Below are positions 1 through 24,010 of a DNA stretch of 27,135 nt, piece after piece. A program made the translations under genes and the position numbers. Every line of letters starts with the position of its first letter. The stretch's first letter is position 1. The stretch spans positions 1-27,135 of the forward strand of contig JAWLEP010000037.1 of NCBI GenBank assembly GCA_041686025.1, in the 5' to 3' direction. The notes under the pieces are model-generated. The model ran no database searches, was not told the DNA's origin, and saw nothing but the letters and a program-made list of their open reading frames with translations. Origin of the DNA: Candidatus Fermentibacteraceae bacterium. Lineage in GTDB: Bacteria > Fermentibacterota > Fermentibacteria > Fermentibacterales > JCC-6.

Positions 1-581
1 GCGAGCATGCAGGCCGGAACGCGAGTGAACGCTGAGCAGGCCTCGAAAATTGTAATGCGGAGGCCGACCTGCCCTACAGCCAGGGAAGGCTGCCACTACG
101 GTGTAGGAGAGCAACGAGAGCAGCCGTCAGCTCCGCCGGGGTAGTGACGTCTGCATGTATGCGCAGGGAGAGGCAGGCAACACGGGAAGCCCCATTGGGT
201 GGCGCTTGCCGCCAACAGACGGCCCGTGAGGGCAGGGTCTGGCCCGATGTGGTGGCGGGCGGGCCCGTAGTACCGCAGAGGCCGGGTAACTCCGGTGGAG
301 GGCAGGGGCCTGGGCTCGGTGCGAGTGCATGAAGTGGCGAGAGCGAGGGGATTGGCCTTGAGCCTATCAACCCCGGACAGCGTTCAGAAGCTGCAGAGGG
401 CGCTACACGTCCGGAAGGCGTGATGCACCGCGCGAAAGCCGGATGCGGGAGAACCGCCCGTCCGGTTTGATGAGCGGGATGTGGAGACGGAGCAAGGCCT
501 GGCTATTGAGGCACCGGCAGACGAAAGGGTCGGCAAACAGATAGGCCATTCCTAAACCACCGCGCCACATCTCGACTCTAC
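1..581 (+). mobile_element. Group II intron, IIB-like (not IIC), ORF-less; 5' end lies upstream of the window
   Basis: Domain V AAGCCGGATGCGG-GAGAA-CCGC-CC-GTCCGGTTT at 436-468 with AGC triad at 437-439. Long domain VI: GAG-CGGGATGTGG 472-484 pairs with CCACATCTCG-A-CTC 565-578, bulged A575, terminal AC at 580-581. Domain III-like GTAGTACC...GGTAACTCCGGTGGAGGG at about 267-302. Id3 hairpin GCCGA-CCTG-loop-CAGG-GAAGGC at 63-90. Confidence 0.93.
358..423 (+). pseudogene. 21-aa remnant of the intron-encoded reverse transcriptase/maturase (internal deletion)
   Basis: TTG-start MSLSTPDSVQKLQRALHVRKA* lies between domain III and domain V. It resembles group II IEP N-termini (MSLxTPxxVQKLQxALH). 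No RT motifs remain. Confidence 0.75.
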
Positions 582-642
582 CGGAATTGCTGCCTGCTTA
601 GGAGCTGAGTCTATCGCAATCCGCTAAGCCTTAGTGTTATCA
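582..642 (+). other. attC site, right part (left arm interrupted by the intron)
   Basis: CGGAATTGC 582-590 pairs with GCAATCCG 616-623. L' CTAAGCC 624-630. R' core GTTATCA 636-642 is the exact reverse complement of TGATAAC 1247-1253 at the end of the next cassette. Confidence 0.82.
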
Positions 643-664
643 CTAAGAATGAAATACGCACCAC

Positions 665-693
665 TTGCATTCGCATGTAATCTCATATATGCT
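665..693 (+). promoter_or_regulatory. Putative sigma70 promoter of the first TA cassette
   Basis: TTGCAT 665-670, 17-bp spacer, TATGCT 688-693. Overlapped by CATATATG/CTATATG short repeats that could be the antitoxin operator. Confidence 0.55.
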
Positions 694-728
694 ATATGCA
701 CAGGAATGCATGCGCAAAGGAGAAGGAT

Positions 729-968
729 ATGACTAAGACCATTACTCTCAGGCTCAATGAGGAACGTTATCTGCGTTTTCGAAAACTCGCGGAAGAAGAT
801 AATCGGCCACTGTCAAATTTCATTGAAACCGCTGTTCTGCGATACATAGAAAACCAGGGATATGCAGACGAGTTTGAGATGTCTGAGATCAGAGGGAATA
901 AAGATCTTAACGAAAGTCTCCGTCGCGGTTTGAAGGATGCTGAAACCGGAAAAGGTAAATTTGCCTGA
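729..968 (+). CDS. Ribbon-helix-helix (CopG/RelB-like) antitoxin
   Basis: MTKTITLRLNEE...RPLSNFIETAV RHH pattern, acidic C-terminus, RBS AGAAGGA before ATG729, overlaps the toxin start. Confidence 0.8.
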   Translation: MTKTITLRLNEERYLRFRKLAEEDNRPLSNFIETAVLRYIENQGYADEFEMSEIRGNKDLNESLRRGLKDAETGKGKFA

Positions 969-1245
969 TTTCAGAATATTCCAAACAGATGAGTATCTGA
1001 AGAAAATGAGCAAGCTACCGGCTAATGAAGCTGAATTCCTCGAAAAGAAACTCAGGGAATATGTGTTTCCCCAGCTTCTGGTTGAGCCATTCTATGGAAA
1101 AAACATCAAGAAACTGAGAAAATATACGCCAACGACTTGGCGATATAGAATTGGGAAGTACAGATTATTCTATATTATAAATCCCAACGAAAAGATCATT
1201 TATCTATTAACCATGGATTTGCGGAAGGACGCATACAGAAATTAG
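961..1245 (+). CDS. RelE/ParE superfamily toxin
   Basis: Basic 94-aa protein with IKKL...WRYRIGKYRLFY...RKDAYR. TTG start overlaps the antitoxin stop. Confidence 0.88.
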   Translation: MPDFRIFQTDEYLKKMSKLPANEAEFLEKKLREYVFPQLLVEPFYGKNIKKLRKYTPTTWRYRIGKYRLFYIINPNEKIIYLLTMDLRKDAYRN

Positions 1246-1246
1246 T

Positions 1247-1324
1247 TGATAACAACTAAATGCAGCAGAGCTGCGCGAGATAACATGTTTGGGTAACGCA
1301 GCCTGCTGATTTAGAGTGTTAGGA
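1247..1324 (+). other. attC site (canonical)
   Basis: R'' TGATAAC; L'' AAAT-G-CAGCAG-A-GCTGCG pairs with CGCAGC-CTGCTG-ATTT, leaving extra-helical bases; R' GTTAGGA 1318-1324. Lies directly between a stop codon and the next RBS/ATG. Confidence 0.9.
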
Positions 1325-1329
1325 GAGAA

Positions 1330-2034
1330 ATGGAGAGGTTAGGCAAAAGCCTATCAGAGCTACAAATCCCTGATGATCTGCTTGCCCAGTGGCAACGCAT
1401 GGTTGACACCATGGCAGAACTAGCCAGCATCCCCGCAGGCTTGATCATGCGTATTAGGCAGGAAGATATCGAAGTATATGTTGCCAGCGCTACTAAAGAA
1501 ACCCCCTACCATACCGGTGATAGAGAGCATCTGCCGGGCTCCGGGTTGTACTGTGAAACAGTTATCAGCACCAGAGAGCCATTGCTGGTTCCGGATGCTT
1601 TGGCTGACCCGCATTGGAAGAACAATCCCGACGTCAAGCTGGGCATGATTTCATATCTGGGGTTCCCCATACTCTACCCGGATAACACCCCTTTTGGAAC
1701 CCTTTGCATTCTAGACAATAAGGCCAATGCATACAACGACACGATTTACAACATGCTTGACAATTTTCGCCAGCTTATTCAGCAGCATCTCGCCCTTCTC
1801 TACATGAATGCACAGCTCGGCGAGAAAAACACTGACCTCATGGCGTATCTTGGCGAGCTCCAATCACTACGCGGCCTCATCCCTATATGCGCCCGATGCA
1901 AGAAGATCAAGGATTCTCACGGGTATTGGAACGCTGTTGAAAAGTATCTGGTCAACCATCCGGAAGCCGACTTCACTCATAGCTACTGTCCAGAGTGCTA
2001 CGAAGAAATGCTAGAGGATATTGAAGACTCCTGA
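1330..2034 (+). CDS. GAF-domain protein with C-terminal Cys-rich (CxxC...CxxC) tail
   Basis: GLYCETVI...LLVPDALADPHW...SYLGFPI...FGTLCILD GAF motifs; tail LRGLIPICARCKKIKD...FTHSYCPEC. Confidence 0.85.
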   Translation: MERLGKSLSELQIPDDLLAQWQRMVDTMAELASIPAGLIMRIRQEDIEVYVASATKETPYHTGDREHLPGSGLYCETVISTREPLLVPDALADPHWKNNPDVKLGMISYLGFPILYPDNTPFGTLCILDNKANAYNDTIYNMLDNFRQLIQQHLALLYMNAQLGEKNTDLMAYLGELQSLRGLIPICARCKKIKDSHGYWNAVEKYLVNHPEADFTHSYCPECYEEMLEDIEDS

Positions 2035-2088
2035 CAACACGGGAACCTTATTGAAAATTGCTCCAAATTTCTAGAGATTATGTCAGGC
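2029..2088 (+). other. Degenerate attC site
   Basis: TCCTGAC contains the stop codon and has one mismatch to the complement of the cassette-start GTTAGGA. Ends in GTCAGGC 2082-2088. Weak internal stem GAAAATTG/CAAATTTC. Confidence 0.55.
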
Positions 2089-2102
2089 GTTTGCCGATAA
2101 GA

Positions 2103-2139
2103 TTGACAGGCATATCATGCCGTACGATATTGCGTACGG
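2103..2139 (+). promoter_or_regulatory. yefM-yoeB promoter and operator palindrome
   Basis: TTGACA 2103-2108. Inverted repeat CCGTACG-ATATTG-CGTACGG 2120-2139, resembling GTAC-core YefM/Phd operators. Confidence 0.65.
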
Positions 2140-2152
2140 GAGGTGGTACAGT

Positions 2153-2395
2153 ATGACCAACATTACTGCAACAGAAGCCCGAAAGCGACTCTACAAGCTT
2201 CTCGATGAAGTTGCTGAGTCCCATGAGCCTGTTCAGATAGCAGGAAAAAGGAACTCCGCAGTGCTGATCAGTGAAGACGATTGGAGATCAATTCGGGAGA
2301 CTCTCTATCTCACGAGCATTCCTGGAATGAGAGAGTCAATCAAGAAGGGCATGGAAACGCCAGTCGAAGAATGCGAGGAGGAGCTTGACTGGTGA
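2153..2395 (+). CDS. yefM: Phd/YefM family antitoxin
   Basis: TATEARKRLYKLLDEVAESHEPVQI...AVLISEDDW...ETLYLTSIPGMRESI; RBS GGAGG upstream of ATG2153. Confidence 0.92.
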   Translation: MTNITATEARKRLYKLLDEVAESHEPVQIAGKRNSAVLISEDDWRSIRETLYLTSIPGMRESIKKGMETPVEECEEELDW

Positions 2396-2655
2396 GTTGG
2401 CAACTTGTTTATACAAGACAAGCTAAGAAGGATTCTGAGAAGCTGGCAGGCTCAGGACTAGAGGAAAGGGCAGAAGAAAGATTGGAGAGGATTAAGGAAG
2501 ACCCATTCGAAACGCCTCCCCCTCTTGAGAAACTGGTAGGAGACCTTGCAGGCGCTTGTTCCAGGCGAATAAGCATTCAGCACAGGTTAGTGTATCAAGT
2601 GCTGGAAGAGAAGCATACGGTCAAGGTCTTACGGATGTGGACTCACTGTGGATAG
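2392..2655 (+). CDS. yoeB: Txe/YoeB family toxin (possibly attenuated)
   Basis: EKLVGDLAGACSRRISIQHRLVYQV...LRMWTH; GTGA overlap with yefM. Ends THCG rather than the usual THY. Confidence 0.88.
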   Translation: MSWQLVYTRQAKKDSEKLAGSGLEERAEERLERIKEDPFETPPPLEKLVGDLAGACSRRISIQHRLVYQVLEEKHTVKVLRMWTHCG

Positions 2656-2656
2656 G

Positions 2657-2737
2657 GGTGAACAGCTGCATGCAACGGCCGCGGGACCAGCTGACTGTGC
2701 GAGGGAGTTCCCGGGCTGCTTATGCAGAGCGTTAGAC
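2657..2737 (+). other. attC site
   Basis: GGTGAAC; CTGCAT-G-CAACGGCC-G-CGGGA pairs imperfectly with TCCCG-GGCTGCTT-ATGCAG; R' GTTAGAC 2731-2737. Confidence 0.8.
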
Positions 2738-5216: not shown

Positions 5217-6905
5217 ATGCTAGGCATAACTATGTTGATTTCTTCTGTTCTTACAGCGACGAGTGTTACAATAGCTGAACCTGTCGACGGAGAAACCTAC
5301 GACGGAGACTGGCTGCCGCTTAAGGTAATTGTTGAAAACGAAAACACTGTGCCGGATTCTGTACATTACACCCTCAATAGTGGAACTGTCACGCAGATTC
5401 CCAGGCTGAATACAGACTGGGATACGTACATGAGAGACAACAGCCGTAGAGGGAGCACCGAAGCCCCCGGACCTCTCACATCGGATGTCCTGTGGACTGC
5501 AAACGTTACCGGGACATATCACGAGTTCATCTCTCCAATAATCGTCGATGGCAGGCTATACCATGCCTCAGAAGATCAGGAAACTGCCTTCTGCCTTGAT
5601 GCTGCCACAGGCGAGATTCTCTGGAGCTTTCCCGGATTGGGTGACCCAATAGATGATGCTCTCGCATACGATAATGGCTACGTCTATGTTGCCTCGGATT
5701 CAGTCTGGTGTCTTGATGCTCTAACTGGTGAAAAAGTCTGGTCATACCTGGGACATGAGGACCATGTAATGGCGGGACCGCCGGCAATCAGAGGCGGAAT
5801 TCTCTACTCTGAGGAGTGGAAGCAGAACACGAGCTATATAACTGCCCTGAACAGTGCTACAGGAGCATTTATCTGGGAGAAATACCTTCCAACAAGAACG
5901 GCAAGCACCCTTACTGTGACGGATGACCTTGTTCTAGTACCAACAGCTAATGGGCCTCTATATGCTCTCTCCAGAGCAGATGGTGAAATCGTCTGGGAGT
6001 ATGAGAACTGCTCATACGGATTCTGGGATACTTCTCCCGTCGTTGTCGATGAAACCGTATTCATTGGAGGATTCGACGGGGTTAACTCGCTTGATCTCTC
6101 AAGCGGGTCTCCCAACTGGAAAACCGATATCGGAGGCAGAGTCGAGTGTACTCCCTGCTACTATGAAGGAAACCTATACGTTGGAGCAGCCTTTCCGGAA
6201 GCCGAAAAAAAGACCGTCTGTCTTGATTCCGAGACGGGTTCCGTGGTCTGGCAGTCTGAGGGAGGGTTGCATGCGTCCATGGGGGCCGCAGGCGGATATT
6301 TATACTGGGGGGATACCTGGGATGGCACTATCAACTGCACCGATGCCTCAAGTGGTGAATTGGTCTGGAGCTATCCTACGAACAGCAGCATCTGCGGGAT
6401 TGTATCATCACCGGCAATAGTAGATGGTGTAATGTTCATTGCAGCGACTGACTCATGTCTATACGCCTTTGGCGCAGGCTTCAAGTACACTTATCGAGAA
6501 GACTTCTTCTATGCCGACATCGGTGATAACGAGCTCATTGTCACATCCTGGGATGGTGGCGAATCTGTTGCCGCCGATACAATCAACTTCACTGTAACAG
6601 AGACAGGAACAGCCCTAGAACCCTCCAGGCAGTTGAGTTTATCGGCAAGTCCCAATCCTCTCACGCGCAGTACTGCATCGATCAGCTTTGATCTTGCTGA
6701 ACCCGGTCTGGTTTCTCTGAAGGTGTTTGATCTTGCGGGAAGGACCGTTGTCCATCTTATTGACCAGGAGATGGTTCAGGGAGAGCACTCAGTTCAGTGG
6801 AACGGGCAAGATCAATATGGAGAGGAGGTTTCTGCTGGCCTTTACCTCTGCAGGATGGAGGCAGACGGAGTTACGGAGACAACCGGACTGTGTCTATTGA
6901 AATGA
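5217..6905 (+). CDS. PQQ-like (BamB-type repeat) beta-propeller protein with Ig-like segments and C-terminal FlgD-Ig/T9SS-like sorting domain
   Basis: Repeated CLDAxTGExxW motifs; tail SPNP...ISFDL...VSLKVFDLAGRTV...GEHSVQWNG...SAGLYLCRM; hydrophobic N-terminus; RBS AGGAG before ATG5217. Confidence 0.88.
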   Translation: MLGITMLISSVLTATSVTIAEPVDGETYDGDWLPLKVIVENENTVPDSVHYTLNSGTVTQIPRLNTDWDTYMRDNSRRGSTEAPGPLTSDVLWTANVTGTYHEFISPIIVDGRLYHASEDQETAFCLDAATGEILWSFPGLGDPIDDALAYDNGYVYVASDSVWCLDALTGEKVWSYLGHEDHVMAGPPAIRGGILYSEEWKQNTSYITALNSATGAFIWEKYLPTRTASTLTVTDDLVLVPTANGPLYALSRADGEIVWEYENCSYGFWDTSPVVVDETVFIGGFDGVNSLDLSSGSPNWKTDIGGRVECTPCYYEGNLYVGAAFPEAEKKTVCLDSETGSVVWQSEGGLHASMGAAGGYLYWGDTWDGTINCTDASSGELVWSYPTNSSICGIVSSPAIVDGVMFIAATDSCLYAFGAGFKYTYREDFFYADIGDNELIVTSWDGGESVAADTINFTVTETGTALEPSRQLSLSASPNPLTRSTASISFDLAEPGLVSLKVFDLAGRTVVHLIDQEMVQGEHSVQWNGQDQYGEEVSAGLYLCRMEADGVTETTGLCLLK

Positions 6906-20226: not shown

Positions 20227-21948
20227 ATGCCGGTGCACAACAGGGACGTGGCCAGGGTATTCGAGACCATAGCCGACCTGCTGGACATAAAGGGGGGCAA
20301 CACCTTCCGGATAAGGGCCTACCGCAACGCCGCCCGGACGGTGGACTCCCTCACCAGGGAGGTGGCCGACATGCTGGAGGAGGGGGAGGACCTCTCGGAG
20401 CTGTCGGACATAGGCGAGGACCTGGCCGGCAAGATCGAGACCATCGTGGAGACCGGCACCCACCCGATGCTTTCCGAGCTGAAGGAGGAGGTCCCGGAGA
20501 GCCTGCAGGAGCTGCTCCGGGTCTCGGGGCTGGGGCCGCGGGGAGTGCAGACCATTCACGAGGAGCTGGGGGTCACCGACCTCGACGGCCTGCGCAAGGC
20601 CGCCGAGCAGGGCTCGATAGCCGAGCTTTCGGGCTTCGGCGAGAAGACCCAGGCCAGGATCCTGGAGGAGGTGGAGAGCATCACCTCCGAGGAGGAGAGG
20701 ACACTGCTGGCCGAGGCCGTGAAGATCGCCGACGGGGTGGTGGAGCACATGCGCTCCCACGACGGGGTGAAGAAGGCGTGCGCCGCCGGAAGCCTGCGCC
20801 GCCGCAGGGAGACGGTGGGTGACCTGGACGTGCTGGTCTCCTGTCGGGAGGACGCCGACGTGATGGACCACTTCCTGGAGTTCGAGGACATAGACGAGGT
20901 GCTGGCCCGGGGGGACACCAAGACCACCGTCATCCTCCGGTCGGGGCTGCAGGTGGACCTCCGGGTGGTGCCCCACGCCGCCTACGGGGCGGCCCTGGTC
21001 TACTTCACCGGCTCCAAGCGGCACAACATCCGGCTGCGCAAGCGGGGCCGGGACCGGGACCTGAAGGTGAACGAGTACGGCGTGCACAGCGGCCGCGAGA
21101 AGGTGGCGGGAAAGACCGAGGAGGAGGTCTACGAGGCCCTGGACCTGCCCTGGATAGCCCCCGAGCTGCGGGAGGACCGGGGGGAGATCGAGGCCGCCGA
21201 GAAGGGCGGGCTCCCCGAGCTGGTGGAGCTCGACGACATCCGGGGAGACCTCCACGTCCACACCAGGAGGACGGACGGCCACCAGACCATCCGGGAGATG
21301 GCGGAGGCCGCCCGGGACCTGGGGTACGGGTACCTGGCCATAACCGAGCACTCCAAGAGGGTCACGGTGGCCGGCGGCCTGGACGCCGACGAGCTGGCCG
21401 CACACATAGGCGACATCGAGGAGGCCGACGGGGAGGTGGAGGGGATCAGGATCCTCAGCGGCGTGGAGGTGGACATACTCGACGACGGAAGCCTGGACCT
21501 CCCCGACGACGTCCTGCAGAGGCTGGACGTGGTGGTGGCCTCCGTCCACTACAGGTTCGACCTTTCCCGCGACGACCAGACCGAGCGCGTGCTCCGGGCC
21601 CTGGACAATCCACACCTCAACGTCCTCGGCCACCCCACCGGCCGCAAGCTGGGCCAGCGCGACCCCTACCAGATAGACCTGGAGCGGATCATGGAGGCCG
21701 CCGCCGAGAGGGGATGCTTCCTGGAGCTGAACGCCTATCCGGACAGGCTGGACCTTACCGACCTGGCCTGCGTGAGGGCCCGGGAGAAGGGGGCGAAGGT
21801 GGTAATCAGCACCGACGCCCACCGCAGCAGCCACCTGGAGTACATGCGCTTCGGAGTGGGACAGGCCCGCCGCGGCTGGCTGTCCGCCGCCGACGTGGTA
21901 AACACCAGACCCGCCGATGAGCTTCTCGAGATGATGGAGAGGGACTGA
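20227..21948 (+). CDS. polX: DNA polymerase X with PHP domain
   Basis: AYRNAA, GLGPR and GFGEK HhH motifs, AGSLRRRRETVGDLD, QVDLR, YFTGS; PHP DLHVHT..DG, HPTGR, STDAH. Confidence 0.97.
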   Translation: MPVHNRDVARVFETIADLLDIKGGNTFRIRAYRNAARTVDSLTREVADMLEEGEDLSELSDIGEDLAGKIETIVETGTHPMLSELKEEVPESLQELLRVSGLGPRGVQTIHEELGVTDLDGLRKAAEQGSIAELSGFGEKTQARILEEVESITSEEERTLLAEAVKIADGVVEHMRSHDGVKKACAAGSLRRRRETVGDLDVLVSCREDADVMDHFLEFEDIDEVLARGDTKTTVILRSGLQVDLRVVPHAAYGAALVYFTGSKRHNIRLRKRGRDRDLKVNEYGVHSGREKVAGKTEEEVYEALDLPWIAPELREDRGEIEAAEKGGLPELVELDDIRGDLHVHTRRTDGHQTIREMAEAARDLGYGYLAITEHSKRVTVAGGLDADELAAHIGDIEEADGEVEGIRILSGVEVDILDDGSLDLPDDVLQRLDVVVASVHYRFDLSRDDQTERVLRALDNPHLNVLGHPTGRKLGQRDPYQIDLERIMEAAAERGCFLELNAYPDRLDLTDLACVRAREKGAKVVISTDAHRSSHLEYMRFGVGQARRGWLSAADVVNTRPADELLEMMERD

Positions 21949-21949
21949 G

Positions 21950-24010
21950 GTGGACTTCAGGCACAACCCGAAGACCGACTTTCGCGACCCCGAAGACCTG
22001 TCGAAGGACGAGGCGGCCGAGCAGGTGGAGGCGCTCCGGGAGGGCATAGAGTACCACGACTACCTCTACTACGTGAAGTCCGACCCGGAGGTCTCCGACG
22101 CCACCTACGACAGGCTGTTCTCCCGGCTGCAGGAGCTGGAGGAGGCCTTCCCCGACCTGGACTCCCCCAACTCGCCCACGAAGAGGGTGGGAGCGCCGCC
22201 GGCGGACGAGCTGGAAAGGCGGGAGCACACCAGGGTGATGCTCAGCCTGGACGCGGTGATGGAGCGCGACGAGGTGCGGGAGTTCCACCGAAGGGTCCGC
22301 GAGAAGGTGGGCCGCAGCGAGAACATGTACACCCTGGAGCCCAAGTTCGACGGCCTTTCGGTGGAGGTGGTCTACCGCGACGGTGAGCTGGACTGCGGAA
22401 CCACCAGGGGCGACGGACGCACCGGGGAGGACATCACCCGCAACCTGCGTACCATAGGCGCTCTGCCGCTGCGGCTGCGCAGGGAGGCCGACCCGCCATC
22501 GTTCCTTGCGGTCCGCGGAGAGGTGATCATGCCCCGGGAGGGGTTTCAGGAGCTGAACCGGGAGCGGGTGGAGCGCGGCGAGGACGCCTTCGCCAACCCC
22601 CGCAACGCCGCCGCCGGGATCGTCCGCCAGCTGGACCCCTCGAAGGTGGCCGACAAGCCCCTGACCATTTTCTTCTACGAGATCCTGGAGGTGGAGGGCG
22701 CCGACCCGGACAGCCACTGGGACACGCTGAAGCGCTTCGGGGAGTGGGGACTGCAGACCAGCGGCCACAACCGCAGGGGATCCACTCTTGAAGACCTCGC
22801 AGGCTTCCACTCCCGGATGTCGGGGAGCCGGGACGACCTGGGCTTCGAGATCGACGGCGTGGTGATCAAGCTGGACGACTACGGGGCCCGGGAGGAGATG
22901 GGCACCAGGCAGAGGTCGCCCCGCTGGGCAGTGGCCTGGAAGTTCGAGCCCAAGAAGGAGGTGACCCGCCTCCGCGACATAGTGGTCCAGGTGGGCCGGA
23001 CCGGCAAGCTCACTCCGGTGGCGCTGCTGGACCCGGTGGACGTGGGAGGGGTCACCGTCAGCCGGGCCACCCTCCACAACGCGGGGGAGGTGGAGCGCAA
23101 GGACGCAAGACCGGGCGACAAGGTGCGGGTGAAGCGGGCGGGCGACGTGATACCCGAGGTGGTGGAGCGCATCAGGGAGCCGGGACGCGAACGCGCCGAG
23201 CCCTTCGAGATGCCCGGGGAGTGCCCGGTGTGCGGGTCGGAGGTCTTCCGGGAGGGCGCCTACCACTACTGCCCCGGAGGCCTCTCCTGCCGGGCGCAGC
23301 TGAAGGGGAGCCTGGTCCACTACGCCTCCCGGGAGGCCATGGACATCGACCACCTGGGCGAGGAGACGGCAAAGGCCCTCATCGAGAGGGAGATGGTGGA
23401 GGACATAGCCGACCTCTACGGCCTGAAGACGGAGCAGCTGGAGGAGCTGGAGGGGTTCGCCGAGCGGTCCGCCAGCCAGCTGCACGACGCCATACAGTCC
23501 GCAAAGTCCCCCCGGCTGGACCGCTTCCTCTACGCCCTGGGGATAAGGCACGTGGGCCGGCACGTGGCCGGAGTCCTGGCCGGGGAGCTGGGCGACCTGG
23601 ACAGCGTACGGAAAGCATCGGCGGACAGGCTTCGGGAGATAGACGAGATCGGCCCCGAGATCGCCGACAGCATCGCCGGGTTCTTCGGTGACGGGAAGAA
23701 CACGGAGGTCCTGGACCGCCTCCTGGACGCCGGCGTGGAGCCCCGGCCGGTGAAGGGCGGCTCTGAAGGCCCCCTGGAGGGGGTGAGCGTCGTATTCACC
23801 GGCGGCCTGGAGGGCTGCACCCGTTCGAAGGCCCGGAGGAGGGTGGAGGACCTGGGCGGACGGGTCACCGACAGCGTCAGCTCCAACACCGACTACCTGG
23901 TGGTGGGCGATGACCCCGGAAGCAAGCTGGAGGACGCCAGAGATGAGGGTTCTGTGGAGATACTGGACGAGGAGGGCTTCGAAGATCTCCTGAAGGACGG
24001 TGGCAGTTGA
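21950..24010 (+). CDS. ligA: NAD+-dependent DNA ligase
   Basis: YHDYLYY, EPKFDG, TRGDGRTGEDIT, VRGEV, NPRNAAAG, IDGVVIK, PRWAVAWKF, C4 zinc finger, HhH repeats, BRCT. Confidence 0.97.
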   Translation: MDFRHNPKTDFRDPEDLSKDEAAEQVEALREGIEYHDYLYYVKSDPEVSDATYDRLFSRLQELEEAFPDLDSPNSPTKRVGAPPADELERREHTRVMLSLDAVMERDEVREFHRRVREKVGRSENMYTLEPKFDGLSVEVVYRDGELDCGTTRGDGRTGEDITRNLRTIGALPLRLRREADPPSFLAVRGEVIMPREGFQELNRERVERGEDAFANPRNAAAGIVRQLDPSKVADKPLTIFFYEILEVEGADPDSHWDTLKRFGEWGLQTSGHNRRGSTLEDLAGFHSRMSGSRDDLGFEIDGVVIKLDDYGAREEMGTRQRSPRWAVAWKFEPKKEVTRLRDIVVQVGRTGKLTPVALLDPVDVGGVTVSRATLHNAGEVERKDARPGDKVRVKRAGDVIPEVVERIREPGRERAEPFEMPGECPVCGSEVFREGAYHYCPGGLSCRAQLKGSLVHYASREAMDIDHLGEETAKALIEREMVEDIADLYGLKTEQLEELEGFAERSASQLHDAIQSAKSPRLDRFLYALGIRHVGRHVAGVLAGELGDLDSVRKASADRLREIDEIGPEIADSIAGFFGDGKNTEVLDRLLDAGVEPRPVKGGSEGPLEGVSVVFTGGLEGCTRSKARRRVEDLGGRVTDSVSSNTDYLVVGDDPGSKLEDARDEGSVEILDEEGFEDLLKDGGS

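Follow-up and report, generated by a model that had tools for sequence, protein, structure and literature searches.

The beginning of a contig from a Candidatus Fermentibacteraceae bacterium raises the question of how a group II intron that does not look like those known from integron attC sites came to lie within such a site, and what it reads there. The whole stretch that was analysed, 27,135 nucleotides of contig JAWLEP010000037.1 (assembly GCA_041686025.1), is referred to below as the window. Group II introns of attC sites are described, in the relevant parts of several sources (PMC3001079, PMC7923331, PMC4424553, PMC8876359), as IIC-attC introns, which enter the bottom strand at R''. The intron of the window is of another kind. 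It is probably a non-autonomous intron of class F/g3 (IIB-type) in which EBS1, EBS2 and, it seems, also EBS3 now point to the left arm of a single attC family of the host phylum, an arm that the intron would have reached by retrohoming.

The window begins inside the intron. Positions 1-581 of the forward strand represent the 3' part of an ORF-less group II intron of approximately 722 nt, of which the 5' ~140 nt lie outside the contig (C37 of the window's genome, G000); the copy in the same-genus genome G001 measures 722 nt and differs from that of the window at 40 positions (93% identity, or 7% divergence). The 3' end, CTCTAC with terminal AC, falls at 581, where the initial annotation had placed it, but the 5' end, which it had expected to read GTGYG, is GTACG in the G001 copy. 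The hallmarks of a group II intron are present, in the form of the domain V triad, the bulged A of domain VI, the GUGYG-like start and the AY end, and folding of domains V and VI yields the AGC triad and the bulged A575 with a z of -2.9. The further claim that the ribozyme is not of the IIC type holds, since the triad is AGC instead of CGC and domain VI is 107 nt long. Rfam models match pieces of domain I and of domains V and VI in the window; RF00029 scores 34.9 bits at 434-512, in a range of 34.9-37.4 bits that lies below the gathering score of 40, and RF02003 scores 90.1 bits on the G001 copy. The coordinates of all features are collected in Table 1.

Table 1. Features of the intron, the split attC site and the cassette array, in window coordinates.
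Feature	Position	Strand	Details	Basis
EBS2	50..53	+	UUGU; pairs with exon -14..-11 ACAA, 4/4	register from relatives
Id3 hairpin	68..84	+	stem 68-71/81-84, loop 72-80	
EBS1	74..80	+	CUACAG(C); pairs with (G)CTGTAG, 7/7	register from relatives
Candidate EBS3	144..144	+	G; +1 C (582) would be its partner	deduced from IIB structure
Presumed J2/3 region	257..259	+	GGG	comparison with relatives
Intron ORF remnant	358..423	+	RT0 start LSLSTPDSVQKLQRALHVRKA, then stop	comparison with relatives
Domain V	436..468	+	AGC triad 437-439, CC bulge 458-459	RNA folding, Rfam
Domain VI	472..578	+	long, 107 nt; bulged branch A575	RNA folding
Interrupted attC, right part	582..642	+	+1 C, inner stem and loop	fold, alignment with empty sites
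L' and R' boxes	within 582..642	+	L' 623-629; R' GTTATCA 636-642, crossover G636/T	
Cassette 1	637..1324	+	DUF6290 antitoxin-like gene 696-968, ParE-type toxin gene 937-1245, attC 1247-1324	
Cassette 2	1319..2089	+	GAF-domain gene 1330-2034, degenerate attC ~2030-2089	weak fold, -5.0 kcal/mol
Cassette 3	2090..2737	+	Phd/YefM 2117-2395, YoeB/ParE 2392-2655, attC ~2657-2737; apparent array end	

The class of the intron follows from its RNA and its kin. Class E was considered first and was dropped in favour of class F/g3 after comparison with the RNA and protein of Ni.ha.I1, which Table S2 of PMC3552965 places in g3 and in bacterial F. Over 363 nt the G001 intron RNA shares 67% identity with its Ni.ha.I1 counterpart, and over 75 nt at domain V the identity is 84%; a relative whose RNA is about 70% identical encodes a protein that is 46.7% identical to the Ni.ha.I1 protein. 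The full-length relatives among the matches listed measure 1985-1990 nt (D.a.I1, 1988 nt), and the ORFs of the relatives, about 436 aa long and ending just 5' of domain V, are similar in size to the RT-X proteins given in the same Table S2 (PMC3552965). On these sequence comparisons the intron is assigned to class F/g3. One position sets the window copy apart from its kin. GGA is found in 84 of the 88 distinct relatives among the matches listed, G001 included, at the positions that we take, from the structure of group II introns, to be J2/3, and GGG is found only in the window copy, which may therefore be decaying.

Directly 3' of the intron lies the right part of an attC site, as the initial annotation had proposed, and its R' box is complementary to the TGATAAC in which the next cassette ends (1247-1253). 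With the boundaries of the boxes placed by what we take to be the usual convention, the insertion point lies 12 nt past the AAC of R'' and one base short of the inner end of L''. The intron is thus inside the L'' region and co-oriented with the cassettes, and both of these earlier claims are confirmed by the flanks in G001 and in the public runs X1 and X3 that are described below. When the two exons of the G001 copy are joined, they fold as the bottom strand of a canonical attC (-15.5 kcal/mol) that has an R box, an L box and two extra-helical bases, and in which the R and L pairs have probabilities of 0.88-0.99. The attC of the GAF-domain cassette is degenerate, with a stop TGA in place of TAA in R'' and with GTC as its R'. 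An integron integrase matching TIGR02249 above its cut-off is encoded both in G000, on a contig (C68) separate from that of the array, and in G001 (C6); its predicted frame (430 aa) extends beyond what the profile covers, and each of the two contigs stops at a GTT that precedes intI and is likely to be attI. Farther along the window, at 20227-24010, a PolX-PHP gene and then an NAD-dependent DNA ligase gene lie 3' of a DUF72 gene, as an ordinary repair cluster.

The registers of the exon-binding sites were determined from the relatives, in two groups among the matches listed: those with a 15-nt Id3 type (n = 21, G001 included) and those with a 16-nt type (n = 70). For the 15-nt type, EBS1 forms a mean of 5.19 of 6 pairs at offset 5, compared to at most 2.4 at other offsets, and EBS2 forms a mean of 3.0 of 4 pairs with exon positions -11 to -14, compared to at most 1.8 elsewhere (n = 21, among the matches listed); the 16-nt type shows the same pairing behaviour, shifted by one (n = 70, among the matches listed). 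The alternative register in which EBS1 is UACAGC and the intron starts one base earlier was ruled out by this test. The Id3 stem and loop are those first described, and the original proposal that the target is read by base pairing with EBS1 stands at 7 of 7 pairs; the 4 of 4 pairs of EBS2, overlooked at that stage, fit it as well. The ACAA bound by EBS2 consists of the last two letters of R'' (AC) and two letters of the spacer. Among the matches listed, TAGTG is the commonest form around the candidate EBS3 (65 counts), and the 42 distinct 3' flanks start with C in 29 cases and with T in 8. C73 is likely to be delta.

The 5' exon had to be sought outside the window's genome. The assembly of G000 lacks the DNA upstream of the window's intron, which is single-copy there and stands at the start of its contig. 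Among 41 related genomes a long match to the intron (93%) is present only in G001, and among the 70 genomes of the phylum G000 and G001 are the only carriers. Upstream of the G001 copy lie a BrnT/BrnA-type gene pair and then CCGAAC AAGC GGCTGTAT, and the 5' junction reads AACAAGCGGCTGTAT/GTACG, with T at -1 where a G was predicted. The question of this base was settled by placing on the G001 locus the contigs from four public runs (X1, X3, X7 and X9). X1 and X3, which come from two separate studies, also contain window-type intron alleles and may include a source of the window's genome, have the junction AACAAGCGGCTGTAG/intron with the exon GGCTGTAG, and the -1 base is G in X1 (3 contigs, depth 18.5/18.5) and in X3 (1 contig, 8.56/8.56). 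The upstream exon, predicted from the Id3 loop and, independently, from the attC right arm to resemble CTGTAG, therefore does so in X1 and X3 and, apart from the T at -1, in G001; in all three the intron begins 12 nt past an AAC, which is the arrangement of AAC, a few letters and exon that had been anticipated. The contigs of X9, an RNA run, cover parts of the intron only, with the 5' junction outside their coverage and no spliced joint among them.

Sites of the same kind are also found empty. In G006 and G007, attC sites that lack the intron have the sequence GGCTGTAG/CGGAATTGC, or AACAAGCGGCTGTAG/CGGAATTGC, and align with the right part in the window; the ligated junction CTGTAG/CGGAAT predicted for the spliced exons is what stands in these sister sites. 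X3 record 10 is the same BrnT/BrnA cassette as in G001 but without the intron, in which position 1359 of the G001 locus is joined to 2114 with intervening letters that start G, C.

The attC family to which these sites belong was collected by its right arm alone, which gave 41 matches in 20 of the 70 phylum genomes, compared to 3 for a reversed control. An intact left arm is present in 36 of them and 3 are chance or degenerate matches, leaving 2 of 41 occupied by the intron. The consensus of the family is AACAAnnGGCTGTAG/C, and 21 of the 36 intact sites are perfect targets (EBS1 7/7, EBS2 4/4 and C at +1). The columns read by the EBS elements are nearly invariant, and columns -10, -9 and -16 to -18, which are not read, are variable; the conservation of L'' is partly forced, because the sites were picked on a palindromic right arm, but that of ACAA is not. 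Across 20 genomes of the host family (L158-L226; family f1 only) the conserved AACAAnnGGCTGTAGC ... CAATCnGCTAAGCC stands 3' of many different cassettes. This attC family is multi-copy, and integron shuffling would keep supplying copies of the target. The EBS-derived motif by itself is not over-represented, since it occurs 36 times in 25 of the 70 genomes and its reversed control about 80 times (hand count). Among these 36 motif loci, 30 were inspected: 14 satisfy a strict attC test, a further 2 are members of the attC family described above, and 14 are not attC.

The intron has probably also lost the means to move by itself. An internal deletion of about 1.26 kb has removed most of its ORF, with the ends joined at a GAAGGC repeat, so that domain IV retains 21 RT0 codons fused to the end of the ORF, and this 21-residue remnant resembles the start of the Ni.ha.I1 protein. 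Among the matches listed, 12 of the 40 sized relatives have a similar deletion junction and measure 719-732 nt. ORF-less g3 introns of this size occur in several hosts (L006, L027, L030, L033, L039, L041, L048, L065, L066 and L081), and all join near AGGC(G/A)TGA, a recurrent deletion route. A reverse transcriptase was sought in the G000 and G001 assemblies and was found in neither. Contigs of X3, X7 and X9 that are about 91% identical to the G001 locus diverge from it at 1910-1912, where the deletion starts, and the loose end beyond this point in X9 resembles a continuation of RT0; judged by these contigs, an ORF-bearing sister intron is the likely helper in trans. Simon et al. (2008) reportedly observed ORF-less introns moved in trans, and TeI3 is a comparison case. 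The present intron resembles these in combining an intact ribozyme with a deleted ORF and a likely reliance on the protein of a sister. It differs from such introns in that deletions like its own have arisen repeatedly within the g3 clade, at a short repeat, and in that the target is an integron site.

The initial annotation also proposed a second intron lineage that exploits attC sites. This proposal stands for one re-programmed twig and fails for a broad lineage, because among the 35 distinct two-flank sites of the g3 clade in the matches listed (~51-72% identical over the 5' part) only one, that of G001, is an attC. The relatives were obtained by a motif scan of genome contigs, which gave at least 121 loci with an identity of at most 72% over the 5' part, and the figure of 1 in 35 may be an undercount, since the attC heuristic is strict and recovers, of the 3 attC sites that follow downstream in the window, only 1. 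A TAAC or TAGC placed 12 nt upstream of the intron makes certain relatives look attC-like, but these failed the arm test where both flanks were present. Wider searches yielded no additional close copy. A metagenome search with the EBS2 pattern gave one match, an intron that has another EBS1 and lies where an IS-like element ends. Viral scans had 0, 2 and 12 matches with no intron among them, G078 itself was the only match when 301 genomes around it were searched at the DNA level, and the EBS1 pattern had 0 matches in 401 genomes around G077. Elsewhere in the phylum, short matches to domain V belong to other introns.

Several other insertion habits were observed along the way. A large g3 sub-clade (L006, L017, L022, L032, L060 and many more of L014-L134) inserts behind a AATGTCCGC-like motif, and its EBS2, GGAC or GGTC, co-varies with the exon, GTCC or GACC. 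Tandem g3 introns, one inserted immediately past the 3' terminus of another, occur at L066/L067, L018 and L049, and at L135 (1540-3515) a full-length, frameshifted g3 intron immediately follows an IS3-like transposase gene, at what appears to be the end of the element. Group II introns of another type, with a short domain VI and the ending CGCGAAT, are present in several host-family genomes (L003, L004, L009-L013), often at contig ends; their flanks differ and are not attC-like by eye.

If the intron has been re-programmed as proposed, its arrival would require nothing but ordinary retrohoming with a reverse transcriptase supplied in trans by the ORF-bearing sister. The intron RNA would pair with the top strand and reverse-splice 12 nt past the AAC of R'', and the inserted RNA would then be copied into DNA, a step probably primed at the replication fork because g3 proteins lack an endonuclease; recognition of the attC hairpin would not be needed. 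We infer this mobility from sequence, as we do the splicing, the helper and the effect on recombination. An involvement of the hairpin as the driver of targeting, as in IIC-attC introns, with pairing secondary, has in its favour that the site is palindromic and that Sonbol and Siam speculate, in the part of PMC7923331 concerned, on a role for a top-strand hairpin with UHB.I2. It is nevertheless very improbable given a complete EBS1 and EBS2 that co-vary with the exons across the clade, and a folded attC would presumably hide IBS1, because the insertion point is inside the stem. An assembly artefact at the contig end, suggested by a window that begins inside the intron, is refuted by the same 3' junction, with both flanks, within a 210-kb contig of G001, and by run contigs that bridge the 5' junction (X1 record 5).

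It is harder to separate repeated homing from one chance event in which a g3 intron entered a single attC, was later inherited and spread passively with cassettes, in which case the EBS match would reflect one event and the different contexts would have been produced by recombination between similar attC or intron copies. The contexts themselves come from the run contigs. In X3 record 11 (896 nt) and X7 record 17 (151 nt), similarity to the G001 locus begins at 1346 or 1348, in the left arm, and extends into the intron, and the DNA upstream of this point is unlike BrnA of the BrnT/BrnA cassette; one contig of X1 joins a right arm, unmatched DNA and then the left arm with the start of the intron; and X7 record 22 departs from the reference after the +1 C, which gives another 3' exon. 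The intron would thus have at least two upstream contexts in the runs of three studies, although recombination between like sites could mimic homing. A single event would agree with the non-attC location of 34 of the 35 g3 sites among the matches listed and of about half of the perfect motif matches, with the membership of both genome copies in the same CGGAAT sub-family, and with the divergence of the introns (7%), which lies between those of the cassette coding sequence (8/373) and the 5' part (14/132). It does not explain why three pairings hit conserved columns of a repeated attC family, nor does it readily account for two or more upstream contexts and a further 3' exon in three studies. 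In addition, the T at -1 of the G001 exon is also present in an intron-free attC (L213), which hints that the G001 insertion was separate, and the right arm of the window differs at 5 positions from that of the intron-free G006 site and at 6 from that of the occupied G001 site. Taken with these observations, a single insertion is distinctly unlikely.

The presence of the intron may affect the recombination of its cassette. In a crude equilibrium folding of 800 nt, the predicted pairing of the R box falls from ~0.99 to 0.7 with the intron, and the native L-box pairs, at 0.88-0.99 in the empty site, are no longer the best partners; the model thus favours a lock on recombination. In G001, the intron-bearing BrnT/BrnA cassette (L002, 805-2137) stands alone and is placed precisely at a chromosomal GAT secondary site, starting at GTTCGGAT and ending at G/ATTGAC, and the homologous empty site CTGGATTGAC is present in the window's own genome (contig C59, ~6503-6515). 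Integration at GNT secondary sites is described in the relevant part of PMC3518468. The G001 cassette is evidence against a strict lock. In X1, the intron-bearing BrnT/BrnA cassette follows an attC of the same family; we regard two homings into this cassette as likelier than recombination of a split attC. One may tentatively ask whether the integrase still moves the split cassette, which could be excised and inserted because R'', the spacer and almost the whole of L'' are undisturbed by the intron, which enlarges only the terminal loop. The intron-bearing BrnT/BrnA cassette, present in an array in X1 and alone in G001, would then have travelled together with its intron, and the integron would be the carrier of an attC-homing retroelement of a kind that the attC families of the host draw repeatedly from several intron classes, a reading that we regard as rather doubtful. 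The co-orientation of the intron makes its splicing from array transcripts plausible.

The intron resembles several known systems in part. Like the IIC-attC introns (S.ma.I2; PMC3001079, PMC7923331), it is a group II intron in an attC that separates a cassette gene from most of the site. The IIC-attC introns as described in those parts have an IIC RNA with a CGC triad, lie opposite to the cassettes at R'' (TTGT/T), and combine an EBS1 of 3-4 bp with a hairpin instead of IBS2, whereas the window intron has a class F RNA, occupies the top strand at the inner edge of L'' and pairs through 7 bp of EBS1 and 4 bp of EBS2. It shares the IIB-type RNA, the AGC triad and, through the putative proteins of its relatives, probably the lack of an En domain with Ni.ha.I1 and D.a.I1 (class F/g3; Toro and Martinez-Abarca 2013, PMC3552965), which according to the relevant entries of that paper lie in an IS4 transposase and in non-coding DNA, respectively; here, the ORF is deleted and an attC family is what the EBS elements address. 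Cassette arrays are also known to contain introns other than IIC, namely UHB.I2 and H.ha.F1/F2 (Sonbol and Siam 2021, PMC7923331). UHB.I2 is co-oriented like the window intron and has toxin-antitoxin cassettes, BrnT/A among them, nearby, but it is a CL1/IIB1 intron immediately after the attC, and H.ha.F1/F2 are 5'-truncated class E fragments; the relevant parts of PMC7923331 claim neither an L'' insertion nor an EBS match to an attC family for any of them. One top-strand IIC intron, with a class C ribozyme, in Enterobacter cloacae is cited in the same source. No description of an L'' insertion, or of a class F intron in an attC, was found in the literature covered, mostly open-access papers.

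The targeting of attC sites has been tied, in reviews and papers, to introns of class C and to their recognition of a bottom-strand hairpin in the DNA; here, a base-pairing intron appears to have been re-aimed at the conserved left arm of a host-specific attC family. What appears to be new is the class F intron, co-oriented and inserted in L''; a co-oriented CL1 intron after an attC was already known. Programs that find attC sites miss those that are split by such introns. The target is unusual and renewable, and the lineage observed is small. Because empty and filled alleles are both available, the lock that a 720-nt insert may place on a cassette, and the restoration of array transcripts that splicing would bring about, are testable.
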